Source: Mobula birostris
Taxonomy: Eukaryota
Direction of reading: 5' to 3'
Assembly (NCBI RefSeq): GCF_030028105.1
Contig: NC_092374.1
Location: 57,669,016 to 57,733,015, forward strand
DNA: 64,000 nucleotides
Part shown: positions 14,433 to 61,754 of the stretch, piece after piece
How the letters are laid out: the number at the start of each line of letters is the position of its first letter
Position numbering within the stretch: the first letter of the stretch is position 1
Program-made: the position numbers and the translations under genes
Notes under the pieces: generated by a model
Told to the model about the DNA's origin: nothing
The model's input: only the letters and a program-made list of their open reading frames with translations
Databases searched by the model: none

Positions 14433-15219
14433 CTGAAAAAGGTTTGGAAATTACACAGTATCAAACACAAATAAAAATCAGTATTCATTGTTAAGCATGA
14501 GTATCCACAATATTAAAAATCGGACTGAATCAATTTGATCTATTTTTGATGGAATACAATTTAAAACATTAACATAGAGTCAAAGTTGATGTGAACTGGG
14601 ATCTCCAAATCCAGGAGAAATTGATCCAAAGATAACTTTCAAAGTTGCTTCAATTAAGAAACAATTTCACCTGAATAATGTAATCCCAACCTTCCCACGT
14701 CAGAACATGTGTAACACACTTAAATCTCCAAGTTTCCCAACAAATCCTATATTAACTTGATTTTGAATTCGATCACTGTTAATCATTACTGGCTCAGAAT
14801 TTTGGAATGATCCATGGAGAAACCTCACTACACATGCTGCAGCTGTTTCAAGCGGTGGTTATTCAGCACTTTTAAAGGCAAGTAGGGACAAGAGATGAGT
14901 CCCAGGAGTATCAAAGTCATCTATATGGCATGTGAACTACAAAATTTCCACTGCTTCCCTCCAGCTCTCACAACCTCCATTATGGGCACTGGCAATTTTT
15001 CAAAGGTTAATAGCATTGTTATTAAGATTCCTTTCACTGATCGTTTAAGCAGTTTGACACTCTTAGTGATTTAATGACTATTCATCTTTTTTAGTATGGA
15101 AACTGCAATTGCTCATAAAGCAAACATTCTGTCATTAAGAAAAGTTCCATCCTCAGACTTAAAATTTATTACTGCCTCCTTAATCTGGAATTCATGCAGA
15201 CAGCACTAAGATCTTCACT

Positions 15220-15644
15220 CACAAACAACAGGAATTCTGCAGATGCTGGAAATTCAAGCAACACACATCAAAGTTGCTGGTGAACGCAGCAGGCCAGGCA
15301 GCATCTCTAGGAAGAGGTACAGTTGACGTTTCAGGCCGAGACCCTTTGTCAGGACTAACTGAAGGAAGAGTCAGGGACAAGAGGTGAGTCCCAGGAGTAT
15401 CAAAGTCCTCTATATGGCATGTGAACTACAAAATTTCCACTGCTTCCCTCCAGCTCTCACAACCTCCATTATGGGCACCGGCAATTTTTCAAAGGTTAAT
15501 AGCATTGTTATTCAGATTCCTTTCACTGATCGTTCTTCCTTCAGTCAGTCCTGACGAAGGGTCTCAGCCTGAAATGTCGACTGTACCTCTTCCTAGAGAT
15601 GCTGCTTGGCCTGCTGCGTTCACCAGCAACTTTGACGTGTGTTG
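15220..15644. mobile_element. Penelope-derived fold-back insertion containing captured host DNA
   Basis: Two inverted pseudo-LTR arms; 14-bp TSD CTAAGATCTTCACT at 15206-15219 and 15645-15658. Confidence 0.9.
15546..15583 (+). ncRNA. Minimal hammerhead ribozyme motif
   Basis: cagtc-CTGACGA-agg gtctcag cct-GAAAT-GTC-gactg; 5-bp stem I. Confidence 0.65.
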
Positions 15645-15742
15645 CTAAGATCTTCACTTCTGCTTTTCTGCTTTGAACGAAGTCTTACTGTATGCAGCAA
15701 TGCAGTCTAGCGCCAACACTGAATATATTTGAAGCAGCTTAC

Positions 15743-15900
15743 CTTCAATCTTATCAAGCTTCCCCAATGTTAAACCTACTGCATTGGGACGGTGTGGACT
15801 TCTTGTAGAAAACACTCCAGTTTTTAGTCCATTCAGTCGAGGTGGTTTGACTTTAGCTTTATAGCTTTGATGCCCATTCTTGTGAAAAATAAAGATAATC
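15743..15900 (-). CDS. TRMO: TRMO coding exon 4 (IIFIFHKNG...GVFSTRSPHRPNAVGLTL...KIEG)
   Basis: Hallmark TsaA motif PPRL...GVFSTRSPHRPN; tacag| acceptor and |gtaagc donor. Confidence 0.97.
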
Positions 15901-16689
15901 CTGTATAAATCAATTGTTCCACATTTAAAATTTAGATATTTAATCACATATTCAAGCAAAGAATAAGATTATTCATTGGTACAGAAATTTTTAAAGAGTA
16001 TAGAACTTGTGTTGCAATATACCTATTGATTATTGATGGGATAATATAAAATGACTCCCGCACAGTGATTGCAGTATTCTGTAAATTAAGATATAGCCTT
16101 TAGTAATATACAACCACCACCATCTAAAAGACGAGAACTGCAGATACCTGGGAACACCACCATTTGGAAATCCCCCCTCCAAGTCACTCACCATTCTGAT
16201 TTGGAAACATATCACCATTCCTTCATTGTCGCCTGGTCAAAATCATGGAACTCCCCCCACTAACAGCACTGTGGGTACCTAAACCTTAGGGACAGCAGTG
16301 GTTCAAGAAGGCAGCTCGTCATCACCTTCTCAAGGGCAACTAGGGATGGGCAATAAACACTAGCTTAGCTGGTGACGCCCATTATCTCATAAACGAATAA
16401 ATAAAACACAAACATAACAGAAACAGCCACTCATACTTATTATATCATTCAATGAATTTTAAGGCTAATCTTTTATCTTAGCAGCACTTTACTGCACTAA
16501 CCACATATCCCTTAAGTTCCCTGAATCTGAATACCTCACAGCTGTTGTTATATCAGTGCCTCTGAACTGTACAGCATAGAAACAGGACCTTCAGCCCAAT
16601 TCGTCCCCGATACCCATGTACATTAATCCCATTTGCACACGTTAAGCTCATACCCCTCTTCTTTCCTATCCAGGGATCTATCCAAGTAT

Positions 16690-17480: not shown

Positions 17481-19468
17481 TGCTCTGTCCACTCAATGCC
17501 TTTTAAACATTGTAACACATACCAAAGATGTACCAGTTGGCAGGTTAATTGCTCATTGCAAATTGTCCCGTCATTAGGCAAGGGTTGCCGGGTGGTGCGG
17601 CTCAAAGGGCCAGAAGGGCCAATTCCGCATGGCATCACAATAAATAAATAAACAAATGTATCTAGCTCTACAATTTCCTCTGGCAACTTGTTCTATATAT
17701 TCAGTACCTTCCATATGGAAAACATGGCCCTCATATCCCCTACTTCAAATAAGAAGTACTCAGTCTATCGAATCTCTCCTTAGTAGAGCTAATAGGACTT
17801 GATGTTTCAATCCCTCTGATAAGTTGGCACTCTCGATGTTGGCAGTGGGCTTGGAGTGATGACAAGGAGGGTAGGTACCTCATCAGGGTCATCAGATGGG
17901 TACCCTCCTTCTTTGATGTTTCATGATAAGCCCACGGCATCTCCAGAGGGTTCAATGATGCTACCTGGCATCCCAGATACACCCCCCTCAGTTCCATACC
18001 CTCCTGTCTTCATTTTGCAGCCCAGTTGCTGTCTTTCCTTTTAATCCAAATCCAATTGCTGCTTTCTTCTGCTGCATTTGACAAAGACTTGATTGCTTGT
18101 TGGAGTGAATAACCCTCACCCCCATCTTCTTCAATAGACTGGTCATAGATGTAGCCACGAATCCCGTGCATCCCACTTCTACAGGGAAAATCTTGGTCTT
18201 CCAGCCGTTCTGGGCAGCTTCAGTCGCCAGTTCAGAGTACTTGGTCTTTTTTCCTCTCATAAGCTTCTTCAACACCATCTTCCCCTGGTACTTGGCAATT
18301 CCACAACATATGCCAACATGGCTGTTATGGACCACAGGACCATGTCTGGCCCGAGTGTTGTAGCCACAATGTCTGGAGAGAACATAAGCTTTTTTCCCTC
18401 CCAAGTCCACGTCCATTTTCCAATCCCGAGCAACCTGCAGAATGCTTACCTCTTTTGATGTTATATGGTGCTCTGGAGGTTGGCCTGCTGGTACAAATCG
18501 TGTGATGTGAACATTTCTTGCCGATGTTTGTGGGAGAGCATTTGTGATGATTCGCCTCTGTTCCAAGATTGATGCCAGCTGTCTGAGAACTTGGTTATGC
18601 TGCCAAGTATACCGCTTCTGCCTGAGGCTCATGATGCATCCTGTTAAAATGTGCCTTAGTAATGCAGGTGCTTGACAAAGAGAGCAAGCGCGGTCTTCTC
18701 CCCACCACTGGTTCAGGTTCTGGGGTGTGGGTAAGAGGTCATAAGTGGCTCTGATGACAAAGCTTAGCCGAGATCCCTCCATCTCCCAGATGTCACGCCA
18801 GCTGAGTTTCCTCTTTTCCAGGCTCTCCCAATTAGTCCATTGACCCTGCTTGGCCATTGAGATGGCTCTGCCTCCTCCTGTCTTCCCACTTCCTCCACCA
18901 TGAGCCGTCTCTTCTGCACTGATGTTGCCTTGTGCCACTGAGGAGATGTTGGGACGAGCCCAAGCCCGGCTCTCCCAATTTGGACTTGGCCAACCACATC
19001 CCTGAAGCAAAGAGCAAACTTAGCACTCTGAACGGCTTCAGATGGGGTTCACTTCCTCCCCATTGCCACACGGGGGGCTGCTGTTCGAATAACAGTATCT
19101 TCAGATTCAGCGAGGGTCATGACCAATCTTGCTTTGGTGCATTTGAATTCTTCCACAAAACTTGTAACTGGTAATTCTAATTTGCCGTTCCCATACAGTC
19201 CAACAGGACTTAAGCATCGTGGAAGTTTCACATGTGTGCTGATCACTCTTTTGAACTTTTCCAACTTGTTGAAAGGGATTTCATACACTGTTAAAGTCCA
19301 CGAGTCTTGGGAGTATGCCGAACTGGAAGCACCACAGCTTGAGTTTTCCTGGCAGCCAGGTCATGTTGATGAAAGCTATGTACATGATGGTGTCCTTTTT
19401 TAGTTGTTTAAACTGCTCAGTGTCTTTGAGCTTAGCATCATACCATCAGCCGAAGCCCTTCACTGGCA

Positions 19469-20817
19469 AACAACAGGAATTCTGCAGATGCTGGAAATTC
19501 AAGCAACACACATAAAAGTTGCTGGTGAACGCAGCAGGCCAGGCAGCATCTCTAGGAAGAGGTGCAGTTGACGTTTCAGGCCGAGACCCTTCGTCAGGAC
19601 TAACTGAAGGAAGAGTGAGTAAGGGATTTGAAAGTTGGGGGAGGGGGGGTGATCCAAAATGATAGGAGAAGACAGGAGGGGGAGGGATGGAGCCAAGAGC
19701 TGGACAGGTGATAGGCAAAGGGGATACGAGAGGATCATGGGACAGGAGGTCTGGGAAGAAAGACAAGGAGGTGGGGGGGGGGGACCCAGAGGATGGGCAA
19801 GGGGTATATTCAGAGGGACAGAGGGAGAAAAAGGAGAGTGAGAGAAAGAACGTGTGTATAAAAATAAGTAGCAGATGGGGTACAAGGGGGAGGTGGGGCA
19901 TTAGCGGAAGTTAGAGAAGTCGATGTCCATGCCATCAGGTTGGAGGCTACCCAGACGGAATATAAGGTGTTGTTCCTCCAACCTGAGTGTGGCTTCATCT
20001 TTACAGTAGAGGAGGCCGTGGATAGACATGTCAGAATGGGAATGGGATGTGGAATTAAAATGTGTGGCCACTGGGAGATCCTGCTTTCTCTGGCGGATAG
20101 AGTGTAGGTGTTCAGCAAAGCGGTCTCCCAGTCTGTGTCGGGTCTCGCCAATATATAAAAGGCCATACCGGGAGCACCGGACGCAGTATATCACCCCAGC
20201 CGACTCACAGGTGAAGTGTTGCCTCACCTGGAAGGACTGTTTGGGGCCCTGAATGGTGGTAAGGGAGGAAGTGTAAGGGCATGTGTAGCACTTGTTCCGC
20301 TTACACGGATAAGTACCAGGAGGGAGATCAGTGGGGAGGGATGGGGGGACGAATGGACAAGGGAGTTGCGTAGGGAGCTATCCCTGCGGAATGCAGAGGG
20401 GGGGGGAGGGAAAGATGTGCTTAGTGGTGGAATCCCGTTGGAGGTGGCGGAAGTTACGGAGAATAATATGTTGGACCCGGAGGCTGGTGGGGTGGTAGGT
20501 GAGGACCAGGGGAACCCTATTCCTAGTGGGGTGGCGGGAGGATGGAGTGAGAGCAGATGTACGTGAAATGGGGGGAGATGCATTTAAGAGCAGAGTTGAT
20601 AGTGGAGGAAGGGAAACCCCTTTCTTTAAAAAAGGAAGACATCTCCCTCGTCCTAGAATGAAAAGCCTCATCCTGAGAGCAGATGCGGCGGAGACAGAGG
20701 AATTGCCAGAAGGGGATAGCGTTTTTGCAACAGACAGGGTGAGAAGAGTAGTCCAGATAGCTGTGAGAGTCAGTAGGCTTATAGTAGACATCAATGGATA
20801 AGTAGACATAGTAGACA
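19469..20817 (-). mobile_element. 5'-truncated Penelope-like element (Neptune type) inserted in the HERO element
   Basis: GIY-YIG ORF 19901-20227 (VIYCVRC...LYIGET..RL..RF.EH), YPCKRNKCYTCP Cys linker, RT thumb remnant, 3' pseudo-LTR; TCACTGGCA duplicated at 19460-19468 and 20818-20826. Confidence 0.9.
19565..19602 (-). ncRNA. Minimal hammerhead ribozyme motif in Penelope pseudo-LTR
   Basis: Minus strand: agtc-CTGACGA-agg gtctcgg cct-GAAAC-GTC-aact; core intact, one stem I mismatch. Confidence 0.7.
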
Positions 20818-23800
20818 TCACTGGCATTTCTGAAACAGTTAGCACAGGTGTTCCGTCAATATGAAATCTTTGATCCGTGACTTGACCTTTGACAATGGAT
20901 TTGCTTCTGCACTAGCTGGCTTGATCTTCATCCTCGCCCATATGATGTTTTGATGAAGCTTTTCCAGAAGTCTCTTGGTGCAGGGGACAGTTGTTGTCAG
21001 TATTGTTATATCATCCATACAGGCTCATATCGGTAGTTACCGTTGACCAAACTGTAGCCGTTTTCCTCCCGCAACCCATTTTGAAGCTCTGATAATAAGC
21101 TCCATTGCCATAGTGAAGGGCAATGGGAAGATGGTGTACCCTGCCACGATGCCAATTTCCGGTGGTTACCAAACTGTGGTGAAGTCTGTGTTGTGAGACA
21201 AACTTGCAGATCCTGGAAGTAGTGTTTTAGCAGATTTGTCATTGTTGCAGGCACCTGAAAAAATTCAAAACAGTCCACAGTAGAGAATGAGGAATTGATC
21301 CATAGGCATTGGCCTGTTCAAGGAACAAGACATGCAGATCCTTTCCTTCTTTCTTAGCCATCTGGATTTGATGCCATATGACACTGGTATGTTCAAGGCA
21401 TCCCGAGAAGCCTGCTATGCCAGCCTTTTGGATTGACGTATCAATTAAATGGTTTTGTTTCAGATACTTTGTAAGTCTTTGCGCCAACACGCAGAAGGAG
21501 ATCTTACCTTCTATGTTCAGGAGGTTTATTTGGTGAAACTGTTCGATGGTGGACAAATTCTTTTCTTTCGGGATCAGAACTGCCCCCTGCTCTTCTCCAG
21601 GCTTTGGGGATCACTTGCTTTTCCCACGTAATCCTCGTGTTTCTCCAGAGAAATTTCAGAATATCCGGGGTGTTCTTGTAGAGACAATACGGAATACCAT
21701 TAGGGCCTGGCACTGATGCCGATCTTGCCTTCTTCACTGCCTCTTTCACCTCACTCAGCTTGGGAGGGCTGATATTAATTGATGTTGTGAGGGTGAGATT
21801 GGTGGAATGTCATCTCTTAGCTCATCAGTGTGGATGTTTCCGAGATATCTTTCAACCTCTTCTTTTGATACTTTCAAGGATCTGCTTTTCTCTTTTGTGA
21901 AAATGCCTTTCACATACTTAAAGGGATCTTTAAGAAGTCTGTTGTTTTCTCCTTTTTGTGTCGTTTCCTTAAATTCTCTGCTCTACACAGCTTCGAGTGC
22001 ATCTGTTTCAGGTCCTCTTGAAGGAGGTTGATGCCCTCTCTTTCTTCTGCTGTTGCTTTTTTCCACGACTTCCTCAGGCCTCTTCTTTCTTTGAAAGTTG
22101 TTGGACTTCCTGGAGATGACAGAATTTGGGGGGAGGAGGCATATCATTCCTGTTGACTTGTTCCTTCACTCCAAGCTTCTCCTTTCCATAGTTATAAATC
22201 AGGTCGCCCATTTTCTCCAACTTCTTTTCTGCTGATCCCTTGATGCCACTTAAGATCAGGTTCACATCTGCATTGATGGTTTCCCACTCCTCACTGTTAG
22301 ACTTTGACCATTTCACCAACGGCTTACGTCCTTACATGCTTTCCACTTTACAATGTGCTTGGCTATGACTTGAACTACAGCTTGTGCCTGAAACTTCTTC
22401 CACATCTCGTAGGGTGCTGATACTCTAAGGACTGTGGGTTTCTTCCCGCCACTGAGTTTCAACCGACTGATTTGACCTTCCTCTTAACAGAATCTGGTCA
22501 ATGCAGGGCCCTGGGTTGGAGATTTTCAAGCATTTCTTCTGTCCTTGATGAATTTTAAGACCACGAGTTGATATTACTTTAGTCCAGCCACACCTACAGG
22601 TCCGAAGAACATCCCCAGCTGCTGGTTTCTCAAGAGTATTGCCACTTTTTTGATTCACTGTCATGTCCATGCCAAGGTTCGTTACCGGGAGGTCAGTCAG
22701 TGAGTCTTCTTGCGCACCCGCTCTCGCAGACTCTGGGGGTATACTTCTCTTTAAACTTCCTGTAGCCAAGTGAGGGAGGCTCTTGTGCCCTGACAAGGTG
22801 ACGGAGCCTGCTGTTATGGGTAGCTAGCCTGGAACAGCCCTGTTGGGGTCTATTTCCTCCTCAGCTGTCTCTCCAGCTGTCACACCGTCATATAAATAAA
22901 GCCCTCGAATTCAGGCGCATTATGATGGATACCATCTGCACTCTTTGAATGCAACCACATCCTTCCTGTAGTGTAACAACCAGAACTGCACACAATACTC
23001 CAAGTGCAGCCTGACCAATACTCTGAACAAATCATGAAGCAGACCCATCCAGCAAATTTTGTACTTAAATGCCAGACTGATGGTGGAGAAAATCTTTCTA
23101 ACTTTCAAGGAAAGTCATCATCATATTAAAATAATCCACTCTACATATTAGATAAACCTAACATATTTGCATATATTTTGTTTTCAAACTGTGGTCTTGT
23201 ATCAGTACTCGAGTCCGCATCAGCACTGGACTTCGAGGTGGATGGTCCTGCGCTGGAATCTGGCCAGGTCCCAACTGGATAGCAGCAGTATCTGCGCGGA
23301 AGAAAGGCCTGGCAATTTGCTTCCGTATCTTGCCACAAAAACCCGATGGACAACTACACTATCCATAGGGTTGCCATAAGTCAACAATGACTTAATTATA
23401 TTATCATTCTCAACATCCCCAGTAGAAAATTTTATGACAAGGAACTAGAAAAATATATTACAAGGCTCTATTGTTCTCATGGAGTCTTTCAGAATGAGGC
23501 TACAAGTCAGAGCCTCTCTTATTTTTTTTTCCCACTTTGCTCTTTAGTCCAAGCTGGGAACTGTATCAAAAAGGAATGCTGATCCGAGATTTTAAAAAAA
23601 TACACTGTAATGCTGGTGCTCCAATTTCTTACAGCATTGTCTTCCTCTGAGAGTGTACAGTTCCTAAGTTTGAACATATTGCTACAGTTTTATTTTCTTT
23701 CTGAAAATTAATACCCAAGTTACAGAAAGTGATCACTGTAAAGCATTAAAGCAGGAGCTATATTTCATGATAGAGTAGCCCAGCCGTTTGTATCGGAATC

Positions 23801-24644
23801 CAGACATTCCTGAGACAATGCAAATATAAGCCAAAAAAAGAAAATGAACTGGTTTGTTATCTGCAGCATTCCTGATTGGAATCTAAGGGCTCAGATATAC
23901 AAATGGCCAGAAACAAATGAAAGCTCCAAATTAATTTATAGACATGTACACTGGAATAGCAGAGAAGCTTTGTTAAGCAACACTCCACATAAATTTCTCA
24001 TCTCCATTAAAAACATCAGAGAAAAGATAGAATCTGATAATTTATGTTCAAGTTTAAATTGGTTACAGTTATTTTCTCTAAAAAAAAAATAGGAGGGTGA
24101 TGTGTCAACCTGAGGTTTATAATGTAACAAAAGGCCTTAACAGGGAAAATACTTGCAAACTGAGAACCCAAAACTAGGAAGTCAAAAATAAGATATAGTC
24201 ACTAAATAATACAATGGGGTTTTCAGGGGAAGAACTTCTTAGAATGTGGCGTTCTGAGAGGCAGGACTGTGCAGGCGTGTGACGTCGGGCAGTGCAGCGC
24301 GGCAGATTTAAAAGGGCAGACATCCTGCTTCGGGTTTGATTCAAAGAAGGAGTCTGAGAGTCTGAGTGGGAGTGCCGAGAAAGACATTTTTGAAATTTTC
24401 GTTATTTTTTTTCTCCAACGGCGTTTTGAGAGGCGGGACTGCGCAGGTGTGTGACATCGGGCAGTGCAGCGCGGCAGATTTAAAAGGAACAGAGCCTCAT
24501 AGAGCGGGCAGCGTAGTTTGCGGGCTGCAGAGTGAGCCGGGAGCAGAGTGAAGACTTAAGGACTTCAGCTCAACGGGCTTAGGCGGAAACAGGCGAGGAA
24601 GGTTTGGCATTCATTTTCTGTTGTTATTTGAGGAGAGGGGCAGT

Positions 24645-25580
24645 ATGAGTGTGAGGGCAGTTTGTTGTTCTCGGTGTCGGATGTGGGAGGCCCTGGAGTC
24701 TCCAAGCCTCCCGGACGTCTACATCTGCGCCAAGTGCATCGAGATGCAGCTCCTAAGGGACTGCATTACGGAACTGGAGCTGCAGCTCGATGACCTTCGT
24801 CTGGTCAGGGAGAGTGAGGAGGTGATAGAGAGGAGTTGCAGGCAGGTGGTCACGCCTGCGCCACGGGAGGCAGACAAGTGGGTCACGGTTAGGAGGGGGA
24901 AGGGGAAAAGTCAGGTAAAAGGGAGTACCCCGGTGGCTGTGCCCCTTAACAACAGGTACTCCTGTTTCAGTACTGTTGGGGGGGACAGCTTACCCGGGGG
25001 AAGCGACAGTGGCCGTGCCTCCGGCACAGAGTCTGGCCCTGTAGCTCAGAAGGGTAGGGCAAGGAAGAGGAGGGCAGTTGTGATAGGGGACTCGATAGTA
25101 AGAGGGTCAGATAGGCGATTCTGTGGACGCAGTCCAGAGACCCGGATGGTAGTTTGCCTCCCTGGTGCCAGGGTCCAGGATATTTCTGATCGTGTCCAAG
25201 ATATCCTGAAGTGGGAGGGTGAGGAGCCAGAGGTCGTGGTACATATAGGTACCAATGACATAGGTAGGAAAAGGGATGAGGTCCTGAAAGGAGAATATAA
25301 GGAGCTAGGAAGGGAGTTGAGAAAAAGGACCGCAAAGGTAGTAATCTCAGGATTACTGCCTGTGCCACGCGACAGGGAGAGTAGGAATGCGATGAGGTGG
25401 AGGATAAATGTGTGGCTGAGGGATTGGAGCAGGGGGCAGGGATTCAAGTTTTTGGATCATTGGGACCTCTTTTGGCGCAGGCGTGACCTGTACAAAAAGG
25501 ACGGGTTACACTTAAATCCTAGGGGGACCAATATCCTGGCAGGGAGATTAGCGGGGGCTACTGAGGTGACTTTAAACTAG
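24645..25580 (+). CDS. CR1 ORF1p: Cys-rich zinc finger/leucine zipper plus SGNH esterase domain (intact ORF)
   Basis: C..C..W...C.KC, heptad LELQLDDLR, VIGDS, HIGTND and DGLHLN motifs. Confidence 0.9.
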   Translation: MSVRAVCCSRCRMWEALESPSLPDVYICAKCIEMQLLRDCITELELQLDDLRLVRESEEVIERSCRQVVTPAPREADKWVTVRRGKGKSQVKGSTPVAVPLNNRYSCFSTVGGDSLPGGSDSGRASGTESGPVAQKGRARKRRAVVIGDSIVRGSDRRFCGRSPETRMVVCLPGARVQDISDRVQDILKWEGEEPEVVVHIGTNDIGRKRDEVLKGEYKELGRELRKRTAKVVISGLLPVPRDRESRNAMRWRINVWLRDWSRGQGFKFLDHWDLFWRRRDLYKKDGLHLNPRGTNILAGRLAGATEVTLN

Positions 25581-25585
25581 AATGG

Positions 25586-28500
25586 TTGGGGGGTGGGAAT
25601 CAAATTAAAGAGGCTAGGCGAGAGGAGGTTAGTTCACAACAGGGGGATGGGAACCAGTGCAGAGAGACAGAGGGGTGTAAAGTGAGGGTAGAAGCAAAAA
25701 GTACTAGGGAGAAAAGTAAAAGTGGCAGGCCGACAAATCCAGGGCAAGCATTAAAAAGGGCCACTTTTCAGCATAATTGTATAAGGGCTAAGAGAGTTGT
25801 AAAAGAGCGCCTGAAGGCTTTGTGTGTCAATGCAAGGAGCATTCGTAATAAGGTGGATGAATTGAAAGTGCAGATTGTTATTAATGATTATGATATAGTT
25901 GGGATCACAGAGACATGGCTTCAGGGTGACCAGGGATGGGAGCTCAACGTTCAGGGATATTCAATATTCAGGAGGGATAGGCATGAAGGAAGGGGAGGTG
26001 GGGTGGCGTTGCTGGTTAAAGAAGAGATTAACGCAATAGAAAGGAAGGACATAAGCCGGGAAGATGTGGAATCGATATGGGTAGAGCTGCGTAACACTAA
26101 GGGGCAGAAGACGCTGGTGGGAGTTGTGTACAGGCCACCTAACAGTAGTAGTGAGGTCGGAGATGGTATTAAACAGGAAATTAGAAATGTGTGCAATAAA
26201 GGAACAGCAGTTATAATGGGTGACTTCAATCTACATGTAGATTGGGTGAACCAAATTGGTAAAGGTGCTGAGGAAGAGGATTTCTTGGAATGTATGCGGG
26301 ATGGTTTTTTGAACCAACATGTCGAGGAACCAACTAGGGAGCAGGCTATTCTGGACTGGGTTCTGAGCAATGAGGAAGGGTTAATTAGCAATCTTGTCGT
26401 GAGAGGCCCCTTGGGTAAGAGTGACCATAATAGGGTGGAATTCTTCATTAAGATGGAGAGTGACATAGTTAATTCAGAAACAAAGGTTCTGAATTTAAAG
26501 AGGGGTAACTTTGAAGGTATGAGACGTGAATTAGCTGAGATAGACTGGCAAATGACACTTAAAGGATTGACGGTGGATATGCAATGGCAAGCATTTAAAG
26601 GTTGCATGGATGCTACAACGATTGTTCATCCCAGTTTGGCAAAAGAATAAATCAAGGAAGGTAGTGCACCCGTGGCTGACAAGAGAAATTAGGGATAGTA
26701 TCAATTCCAAAGAAGAAGCATACAAATTAGCCAGAGAAAGTTGCTCACCTGAGGACTGGGAGAAATTCAGAGTTCGGCAGAGGAGGACAAAGGGCTTAAT
26801 TAGAAAGGGGAAAAAAGATTATGAGAGAAAACTGGCAGGGAACATAAAAACGGACTGTAAAAGCTTTTATAGATATGTAAAAAGGGAAAGACTGGTAAAG
26901 ACAAATGTAGGTCCCCTGCAGACAGAAACAGGTGAATTGATTATGGGGAGCAAGGACATGGCAGACCAATTGAATAATTACTTTGGTTCTGTCTTCACTA
27001 AGGAGGACATAAATAATATTCCAGAAATAGTAGGGGACAGAGGGTCCAGTGAGATGGAGGAACTGAGCGAAATACATGTTAGTAGGGAAGTGCTGTTAGT
27101 TAAATTGAAGGGATTGAAGGCAGATAAATCCCCAGGGCCAGATGGTCTGCATCCTAGAGTGCTTAAGGAAGTAGCCCAAGAAATAGTGGATGCATTAGTG
27201 ATAATTTTTCAAAACTCGTTAGATTCTGGACTAGTTCCTGAGGATTGGAGGGTGGCTAATGTAACCCCACTTTTTAGAAAAGGAGGGAGAGAGAAACCGG
27301 GGAATTATAGACCAGTTAGCCTAACGTCAGTGGTGGGGAAACTGCTGGAGTCAGTTATCAAGGATGTGATAACAGCACATTTGGAAAGTGGTGAAATGAT
27401 CGGACAAAGTCAGCATGGATTTGTGAAAGGAAAATCATGTCTGATGAATCTCATAGAATTTTTTGAGGATGTAACTAGTAGAGTGGATAGGGGAGAACCA
27501 GTGGATGTGGTATATTTGGATTTTCAAAAGGCTTTTGACAAGGTCCCACACAGGAGATTAGTGTGCAAACTTAAAGCACACGGTATTGGAGGTAAGGTAT
27601 TGATGTGGATGGAGAATTGGTTAGCAGACAGGAAGCAAAGAGTGGGAATAAAGGGGACCCTTTCAGAATGGCAGGCAGTGACTAGTGGGGTACCGCAAGG
27701 CTCAGTGCTGGGACCCCAGTTGTTTACAATATATATTAATGACTTGGATGAGGGAATTAAATGCAGCATCTCCAAGTTTGTGGATGACACGAAGCTGGGT
27801 GGCAGTGTTAGCTGTGAGGAGGATGCTAAGAGGATGCAGAGTGACTTGGATGGGTTGGGTGAGTGGGCAAATTCATGGCAGATGCAATTTAATGTGGATA
27901 AATGTGAAGTTATCCACTTTGGTGGCAAAAATAGGAAAACAGATTATTATCTGAATGGTGGCCGATTAGGAAAAGGGGAGGTGCAACGAGATCTGGGTGT
28001 CATTATACACCAGTCATTGAAAGTGGGCATGCAGGTACAGCAGGCAGTGAAAAAGGCGAATGGTATGCTGGCATTTATAGCGAGAGGATTCGAGTACAAG
28101 AGCAGGGAGGTACTACTGCAGTTGTACAAGGCCTTGGTGAGACCACACCTGGAGTATTGTGTGCAGTTTTGGAAAAACATCCTTGCCATAGAGGGAGTAC
28201 AAAGAAGGTTCACCAGATTGATTCCTGGGATGGCAGGACTTTCATATGAAGAAAGACTGGATGAACTGGGCTTGTACTCGTTGGAATTTAGAAGATTGAG
28301 GGGGGATCTGATTGAAACGTATAAAATCCTAAAGGGATTGGACAGGCTAGATGCAGGAAGATTGTTCCCGATGTTGGGGAAGTCCAGAACGAGGGGTCAC
28401 AGTTTGAGGATAAAGGGGAAGCCTTTTAGGACCGAGATTAGGAAAAACTTCTTCACACAGAGAGTGGTGAATCTGTGGAATTCTCTGCCACAGGAAACAG

Positions 28501-28601
28501 TTGAGGCCGGTTCATTGGCTATATTTAAGAGGGAGTTAGATATGGGCCTTGTGGCTACGGCGATCAGGGGGTATGGAGGGAAGGCTGGGGCGGGGTTCTG
28601 A
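25586..28601 (+). pseudogene. CR1 ORF2 (APE endonuclease plus reverse transcriptase), frameshifted near 26610
   Basis: NARSI, GITETW, GDFN and SDH APE motifs; NYRPVSLTS, YLDFQKAFD, GVPQGSVLGP and FVDD RT motifs; split into two overlapping ORFs. Confidence 0.9.
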
Positions 28602-36542: not shown

Positions 36543-36747
36543 CGCAAACACGAGGAAATCTGCAGATGCTGGAGATTCAAGCAACACACACAAAAAATAC
36601 TGGTGAACGCAGCAGGCCAAGCAGCATCTATAGGAAGAGGTACAGTCAATGTTTCGGGCCGAGACCACTTTTCCCGAAATGTCAACTATACCTCTTCCTA
36701 TAGATGCTGCCTGGCCTGTTGTGTTCACCAGTATTTTTTGTGTGTGT
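36543..36747. mobile_element. Penelope-derived fold-back element inserted in Gypsy remnant
   Basis: Inverted arms of about 90 bp; 15-bp TSD GGCATATTCATCAAA at 36528-36542 and 36748-36762. Confidence 0.88.
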
Positions 36748-36879
36748 GGCATATTCATCAAAATGGAATTGGACACTGGCTCAACTAAGAATTTATACTG
36801 GAGACAAGATAACTCCTGAGGGAATGACAGCTCTAACTGTGAAATAAAACAACCCACAACTGTGTTGCCACCCACAGCT

Positions 36880-57049: not shown

Positions 57050-57630
57050 GGGAAAACACAAAAAATGCTGGAGGGACTCTGCAGGTCAGGCAGCGTCTAT
57101 GGAAATGAATAAACAGTCGACATTTCGGGCTGAAACCATTCATCAGGGCTGGAAAAAAAGATGAGAATGTAAAGCAAGAAGGTGGTGGAGGGGAGGAAGA
57201 AGCACAAGTTGCAGGTGATAGATGGAACCATGAGAAGGGAGTGAAGAGTTTTGGCATGAAACGTCAACTGTACTTTTCCATAGATGCTGCCTGCCCTGAT
57301 GAGTTCTTCCTGCATTTTGTGTGTGTAGCTTGGATTTCCAGCATCTGCAGATTTTCTCTTGTTTGAAGTTGATTGGTAGATGCTCAGCGAAGCAGTCTCC
57401 CAATCTACATCGGGTCTCACTGATATGTAGGAGACCCCACCGGATACAGTATACCTGACAAAGATCTGGAGACTGCTTTGCAGAGCATCTACCCTCTGTC
57501 CACTAGAAAATGCAGGATCTCCTGGTAGCCACCCATCTCAATTCCACTTCGCATTCCCATTCTGACACGTCAGTCTATGGCCTCCTCTATTGCTTCTTCC
57601 TCCCCTCCCCCCACCTTCTTGCTGTGACTT
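57050..57630. mobile_element. Scrambled Penelope fragments in both orientations
   Basis: Inverted pLTR arms plus GDCFAEHL fragments on both strands. Confidence 0.65.
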
Positions 57631-61319: not shown

Positions 61320-61754
61320 TCAAAGTTGCTGGTGAACGCAGCAGGCCAGGCAGCATCTGTAGGAAGAGGTGCAGTCGACGTTTCAGGCCGAGACCCTTCA
61401 TCAGGACTAACTGAAGGAAGAGTGAGTAAGGGATTTGAAAGTTGGAGGGGGAGGGGGAGATCCAAAATGATAGGAGAAGACAGGAGGGGGAGGGATAGTC
61501 TGAGTCAAAGTGTGGTCGAAAAGTTGAAGAGCCGAAGAAATTACAGATGGGGAGCAGTGAGAGATGGTTTCACTGAACTCCCGTCGAAGAGAGGATCTAA
61601 ACTTCTTCGGTGTAGGCATCACCGGAAGAGGCTTCGCAGTAGTGAATTTAAACGCAAACAACAGGAATTCTGCAGATGCTGGAAATTCAAGCAACCCACA
61701 TCAACTTTGATGTATGTTGCTTGAATTTCCAGCATCTGCAGAATTCCTGTTGTT
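61320..61754 (-). mobile_element. Rearranged Penelope insertion (pLTR, 5' end of ORF, inverted terminus)
   Basis: 15-bp TSD AACTATTGACCTCCA at 61305-61319 and 61755-61769; same pLTR sequence as 19469-19690. Confidence 0.85.
61372..61409 (-). ncRNA. Minimal hammerhead ribozyme motif (best-preserved copy)
   Basis: Minus strand: tagtc-CTGATGA-agg gtctcgg cct-GAAAC-GTC-gactg; stem I agtc/gact, stem II agg/cct, palindromic ACGT stem III. Confidence 0.75.

Follow-up and report, generated by a model that had tools for sequence, protein, structure and literature searches.

A Penelope insertion in an intron of TRMO in Mobula birostris contains two inverted copies of the element's 3' end and, between them, a 162-bp direct copy of nearby intron DNA. 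Six of 236 other inverted Penelope pairs in this genome also carry a filler copied from their own flank, and host fillers sit almost only at equal-ended junctions, those at which the two arms stop at element positions no more than 6 nt apart. The insertion was found in a 64,000-nt stretch of DNA, referred to here as the window.

Alignment of the locus recovered the TSD, the two inverted pLTR arms and the 162-bp copy with four mismatches that the initial annotation had described. The 14-bp TSD, CTAAGATCTTCACT, is identical on both sides and encloses all three parts. Filler and source align over 162 nt (E 7e-76), with mismatches (source/copy) at 14895/15384 (A/G), 14919/15408 (A/C), 14990/15479 (T/C) and 15024/15513 (A/C). 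The inverted arms align over 113 nt (15257-15369 and 15534-15646) with 94% identity. The host gene was identified as TRMO by its TrmO_N domain and lies on the minus strand. As claimed earlier, the insertion is close to a splice donor, although we count 84 intron bases between TSD and donor rather than 85. At the left junction, the AGT of the arm is followed by an extra C and then by the copy, and in the source AGT stands immediately before the copied stretch; the AGT microhomology proposed for this junction is therefore broken by the C at 15372. A single T is common to the filler and the right arm at the right junction.

Features of the TRMO insertion (positions in the window) and fillers copied from the flank at other inverted pairs (filler length and distance of the source)
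Feature	Position or length	Strand or orientation	Remark
Filler source, TRMO intron DNA	14884..15045	+	ends 160 bp from left TSD
Left TSD, 14 bp	15206..15219	+	single in organisms D and E
Left arm, Penelope 3' end with tail of about 35 nt (15222-15256)	15220..15371	-	ends at element position 150
Minimal hammerhead motif, G8 to A at 15347	15321..15356	-	sense in TRMO pre-mRNA
Extra C	15372..15372	+	absent from reference element copy and from source
Filler, direct copy of 14884-15045	15373..15534	+	97.5%
Right arm, tail-less Penelope 3' end, element positions 36-148	15534..15646	+	T common with filler, CT with TSD
Minimal hammerhead motif, CUGACGA and GAAA intact, C to U at 15575	15547..15582	+	antisense to TRMO
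Right TSD, 14 bp	15645..15658	+	
TRMO intron containing source and insertion	14433..15742	-	
Longer 5'-truncated copy, same family, GIY-YIG end of ORF	19467..20848	-	reference for element positions
Filler at L076	45 bp	inverted	420 bp off
Filler at L098	158 bp	inverted	584 bp off
Filler at L138	114 bp	inverted	431 bp off
Filler at L197	145 bp	direct	about 395 bp off
Filler at L202	32 bp	direct	472 bp off
Filler at L303	61 bp	direct	about 870 bp off

The left arm is 97% identical to a longer copy of the same family in the window, and element positions are numbered from its end at 19467 (position 1). This copy encodes a GIY-YIG domain upstream of the pLTR (PF01541, E 4.5e-5, above the cut-off; 19904-20377), which is preceded by CKRNKCYTC (CX4CxxC), a motif that fits the CX2-5CxxC linker characteristic of the Neptune and Nematis clades. 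The copies examined end before the RT core, and their placement is based on the GIY-YIG domain, the linker and the pLTR. The reading frame of the window copy is broken by a stop at 20378, and the copy sits among pieces of another retroelement-like frame (17988-19403 and 21239-21610, plus strand). The window contains further fold-back Penelope pairs of varied ages (36545-36750, 61655-61754, 1262-1448, 2228-2414 and 57056-57365), and no host filler was present in the alignments seen of these pairs. It also contains a near-intact LINE (24248-24487 and 24552-28601, plus strand) with long open frames of 342, 361 and 676 aa and a 68-bp direct repeat at its 5' end.

The insertion and its filler were confirmed to be real. 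A search of the 4.0-Gb assembly with the 162-bp sequence returned two matches, the source and the copy (such counts are lower bounds), so the filler is not an ordinary high-copy part of the element. Public contigs from organisms D and E join position 15213 to 15672 and 15664, and these two organisms thus provide the orthologous empty site that the initial annotation had called for. In organism B, contigs run from the flanks into both arms, covering both outer junctions, and depth is 6.3 in the bin 15418-15471, where D and E have zero; this hints that organism B carries the filler. A contig from run X1 spans the join between left arm and copy (15345-15438) with no differences. Over 14500-16100, contig depth in the same run is about 62 to the left of the insertion and about 35 to its right. 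Both B, D and E at 14919 and B and E at 15024 have C, the letter of the copy. Because the relatives have the copy's letters, these two mismatches out of four arose in the source only after it had been copied. That the structure is an assembly artefact or an ordinary part of the element is scarcely credible: contig support for the joins between arm and copy covers the left junction only, and X1 may be the assembly's own sample, but the left-junction contig, the empty sites in two organisms, the four mismatches (two of them polarised by outgroups) and the two genome matches all argue against it.

Pack-MULEs and other Pack-type elements are DNA transposons whose ends move cargo, with host DNA between inverted ends and a TSD around the whole. 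The TRMO insertion has the same arrangement, but its cargo is an unmoved local copy. With two matches only, the captured DNA has not been carried to new loci, and the label 'Pack-like' was dropped since the genome holds no second cassette copy of the filler.

The initial annotation had also called the insertion ribozyme-armed. A CUGANGA...GAAA hammerhead motif can be read in the sequence of each arm; however, the left core is CUGACAA, the right one has U instead of C after GAAA, and an Rfam scan of the window gave no match at the gathering score. As a statement of function the term does not hold. The only motif in pre-mRNA sense is the one in which G8 has become A, and a change at this site (G8C) abolished hammerhead cleavage in the experiments described in PMC11167929. 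In the predicted fold of the cassette transcript, the arms form a 113-bp stem and both motifs are paired within it. Minimal Penelope hammerheads, according to the activity data in PMC4209133, do not cleave as monomers and cleave weakly as dimers. The predicted RNA hairpin, about 100 nt from the splice donor, could affect splicing or editing.

Inverted arm pairs were collected from the genome with five exact patterns, which gave 714, 136, 92, 619 and 180 matches. We analysed 236 pairs with flanks of about 1.5 kb or more, comprising 39, 50, 91, 29 and 27 pairs from the respective sets; the set of 92 was thereby taken nearly whole. Pairs were selected by spacer, and survey rates are higher than for all pairs because three of the patterns require a minimum of 60-110 nt past the anchors. 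Every count omits an early-truncation pattern (5 loci), as well as L193, L194, L198, L201, L204, L208, L209 and L203, which lie outside the completed census. Five pairs of another subfamily (L069, L072, L074, L075 and L088), duplicates (L178, L277, L286 and L299) and L161, which had no right arm call, were dropped. The arm ends of L076, L202, L303 and L165 were corrected manually.

Exactly one arm carries a tail in 223 of the 236 pairs. TSD lengths are most often 13-14 bp (75 of 189 calls), and no TSD was found in 41 pairs. Rare variants are common to both arms of a pair in 24 cases against 2.6 expected (maximum 8 in 300 shuffles), a figure to which subfamily structure could contribute. At L116, L162 and L269, both arms run on at the centre into the same internally deleted variant, and the arms of L295 have private substitutions in common, pointing to one template for both arms at these four loci. 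Among filler-less pairs, the distribution of arm ends agrees with independent stops in all bins, with a difference of 0-3 nt in nine pairs against 8.0 expected. Many plain junctions coincide with a GATC, itself self-complementary, close to element position 187. The idea that the second arm was made by fold-back copying of a single cDNA was rejected because lone copies also begin near position 36.

The scan for spacers matching nearby DNA that had been suggested in the initial annotation identified the six other captures, at which fillers of 32-158 bp were copied from sources 0.4-0.9 kb away, all within 1 kb, on either side and in either orientation. For L138 the local source is the only genome-wide match, and for L098 the sole full-length genome match is local. 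At L197, where we scored 40 of 2376 candidates, the local source was the best of the 40 (98% vs 96%), and at L076, L202 and L303 the local copy was best in comparison with the other fetched loci. The nearby flank thus matches these fillers better than the other loci compared, which is the mark of a locally templated insertion. Microhomology at capture junctions is 0-2 nt. Short reiterated copies at the junctions of L076, L098, L068, L114 and L206 resemble polymerase theta scars; the reiterated arm-end fillers of L068, L114 and L206 could be due either to polymerase theta or to a telomerase-like RT that slipped. The centres of L193, L136, L195, L196 and L278 are also occupied by non-element fillers, 62-254 bp long. 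The L193 filler is part of a dispersed repeat and has no source nearby, the L136 filler is a piece of another repeat, and no filler source was found within 1.4-3 kb of L195, L196, L136 or L278. Most of the fillers first classed as 'other' (L116, L129, L207, L269, L270 and L295) proved to be variant or internally deleted continuations of the element and were not counted as host DNA.

At all six captures and at the TRMO locus (150/148), the arms end no more than 6 nt from the same element position, and at four of these loci the ends are exactly equal. Arm ends lie within 6 nt in 6/6 captures but in only 13/165 filler-less pairs (Fisher p=9e-7). When all non-element fillers are considered, the figure is 12/14 (p=3e-10), the exceptions being the foreign fillers of L106 and L278 at unequal junctions. 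For captures found after the idea had been noted (first 95 loci), it is 3/3 vs 8/107 (p=8e-4). A null that respects spacing limits gives 0.07-0.16 per locus for the first five. Element-derived fillers that recopy an arm occur at both kinds of junction (6/15 within 6 nt). In the long-arm census, equal ends were seen in 0/64 filler-less pairs against 3.4 expected (P=0.04, which is marginal and one of four tests), and equal-ended plain pairs were not depleted in the other four samples. Whether the two cDNAs match in length would make no difference to a simple jump during integration, and the equal ends therefore mark a distinct state.

We think there is about an even chance that the inverted insertion folded into a hairpin that was opened, trimmed equally and patched by copying nearby DNA. 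This route is favoured because plain pairs have no peak of equal ends. The enzymes and the order of events given here are what we infer from the structure, its recurrence and the equal-end rule. The endonuclease would first cut the two strands at sites separated by about 14 bp, and cDNA synthesis would be primed at either end, at the start of the tail in one case and about 35 nt further inside the element in the other; each cDNA would stop independently, and the two would be joined head to head. Lizard Penelope in vitro has two start sites and cuts two strands (PMC11167929), and because two start sites were seen in that system, the tail/no-tail pairing and the TSD fit two-ended priming. In a minority of insertions, the self-complementary arms would then pair, while the integrating DNA was still single-stranded or shortly afterwards. 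Cutting of the loop and trimming as far as the top of the stem would leave both arms ending at the same element position. Finally, the break would be resected, a 3' end would copy the flank a few hundred bases away with the 0-2 nt microhomology seen in the products, and the ends would be rejoined; the filler would then space the arms and stabilise them. Sources on both sides and in both orientations fit a DNA template. The product is a dead insertion, and nothing shows re-mobilisation.

Some observations weigh against the hairpin route. No individual or relative was seen with the same insertion and a different centre, and near-perfect palindromes with arms of about 100-150 bp persist at L094, L173 and L183. 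The foreign fillers at the unequal junctions of L106 and L278, the element-derived fillers at both kinds of junction and the undepleted equal-ended plain pairs of the other four samples also speak against it. Mouse transgene palindromes likewise break at the centre of the inverted repeat and are stabilised by lost symmetry or a spacer. There, however, 93% of 118 rearrangements were symmetry-breaking deletions and inclusion of a spacer was uncommon, according to the mouse data summarised in the review PMC8701086. The route is weakened because those rearrangements are mostly uneven deletions, whereas the Penelope captures combine equal ends with a locally copied spacer.

The initial annotation had instead proposed that, during integration, synthesis jumped onto nearby host DNA and then joined a second, opposite cDNA. 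One TSD-flanked insertion, opposite cDNAs and a local filler all agree with this; a plain jump leaves the equal arm ends unexplained. A one-step event that does account for them is possible but less probable than the hairpin route: two RTs would copy one RNA to its 5' end, giving equal cDNAs, the RT or a repair polymerase would copy the flank as a bridge, and equal filler-less joins would later be lost or unevenly trimmed. The tail/no-tail pairing, the rare variants and internal deletions common to both arms, a predicted dimer, and the one untemplated-looking base at the left junction of the TRMO locus and at L197 are consistent with it. Against this stand the filler-less pairs, which have no peak of equal or near-equal ends and fit independent stops, so that heavy later loss is required to hide the peak. 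We consider it rather unlikely that, more generally, Penelope RTs acting as a pair extend both cDNAs along a single RNA to a common end and afterwards change template to host DNA or nascent RNA at a distance of hundreds of bases, with equal ends as the signature; in that case Penelope would routinely duplicate local DNA and would have given this genome short host copies by the hundred.

The TRMO pre-mRNA had also been put forward as template; its strand fits at this locus, but nothing favours it. That the Penelope RT left its own RNA for a nascent TRMO transcript and reverse-transcribed 162 nt of it, starting at the 3' end, seems distinctly unlikely. With TRMO encoded on the minus strand, a transcript whose end lay at 14884 would give a direct copy on the 3' end of the left arm, but this fit has even odds. 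The extra C and the fillers of L193 and L136, pieces of other repeats without a local source, are in keeping with RNA capture, whereas none of the four mismatches is a mark of editing or splicing (two are the later source changes), and an RNA jump does not itself explain the equal ends. Less probable still is an unrelated, much later break or template switch that placed the filler in an old inverted pair. The arms of L076 and L202 show more divergence than their short fillers would seem to require, but 7/7 local captures have equal arm ends, and divergence at the TRMO locus is similar between the arms (2/95 non-CpG sites) and between filler and source (4/162). Moreover, the copy keeps ancestral letters that are still in organism B's source, and B has coverage on the copy.

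Which enzyme would copy the flank is uncertain, because polymerase theta tracts are far shorter and nearer, typically 3-30 bp from within 30 bp in the data of PMC7165422. The Penelope captures resemble the insertions described there in their direct and inverted flank copies, little microhomology and reiterated short copies, but the fillers are 32-162 bp and come from hundreds of bases away (at the TRMO locus, 162 bp from a distance of 160 bp). L1 offers another parallel: in the templated insertions and twin priming reported by Zumalave et al. (10.1101/2024.08.27.596794), both target nicks prime cDNA and a non-element genomic template of less than 250 bp is copied into the new insertion. The L1 templates described lie within 15 bp of the site, whereas Penelope captures come from 160-870 bp away and sit between two copies of the same 3' end.

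Inverted 5'-truncated Penelope insertions with a one-sided tail are known (Craig et al. 2021, PMC8557442). Those described for EN+ Penelope-like elements there and by Frangieh et al. (2024, PMC11167929) have in common with ours the inverted 5'-truncated copy, a 30-40-bp tail at one end only, the hammerhead motif and the C-terminal GIY-YIG domain; the descriptions of inverted pLTR insertions in these two papers mention neither host DNA filling the inversion junction nor an equal-end rule. A search of a literature that excludes most subscription papers returned neither an account of local capture where Penelope copies are inverted nor a statement of such a rule. How Penelope makes inverted ends is presented as an open question in PMC8557442.

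In the M. birostris genome, one exact pattern by itself finds at least 714 young inverted pairs. These pairs give rules that any integration model must reproduce: one tailed and one tail-less arm, a TSD peak at 13-14 bp, independent arm lengths, and host fillers almost only at equal ends. The Penelope captures extend the known templated insertions, and their value is as a countable constraint on Penelope integration. They also show one way in which a large vertebrate genome can acquire short duplications of host DNA from close by.
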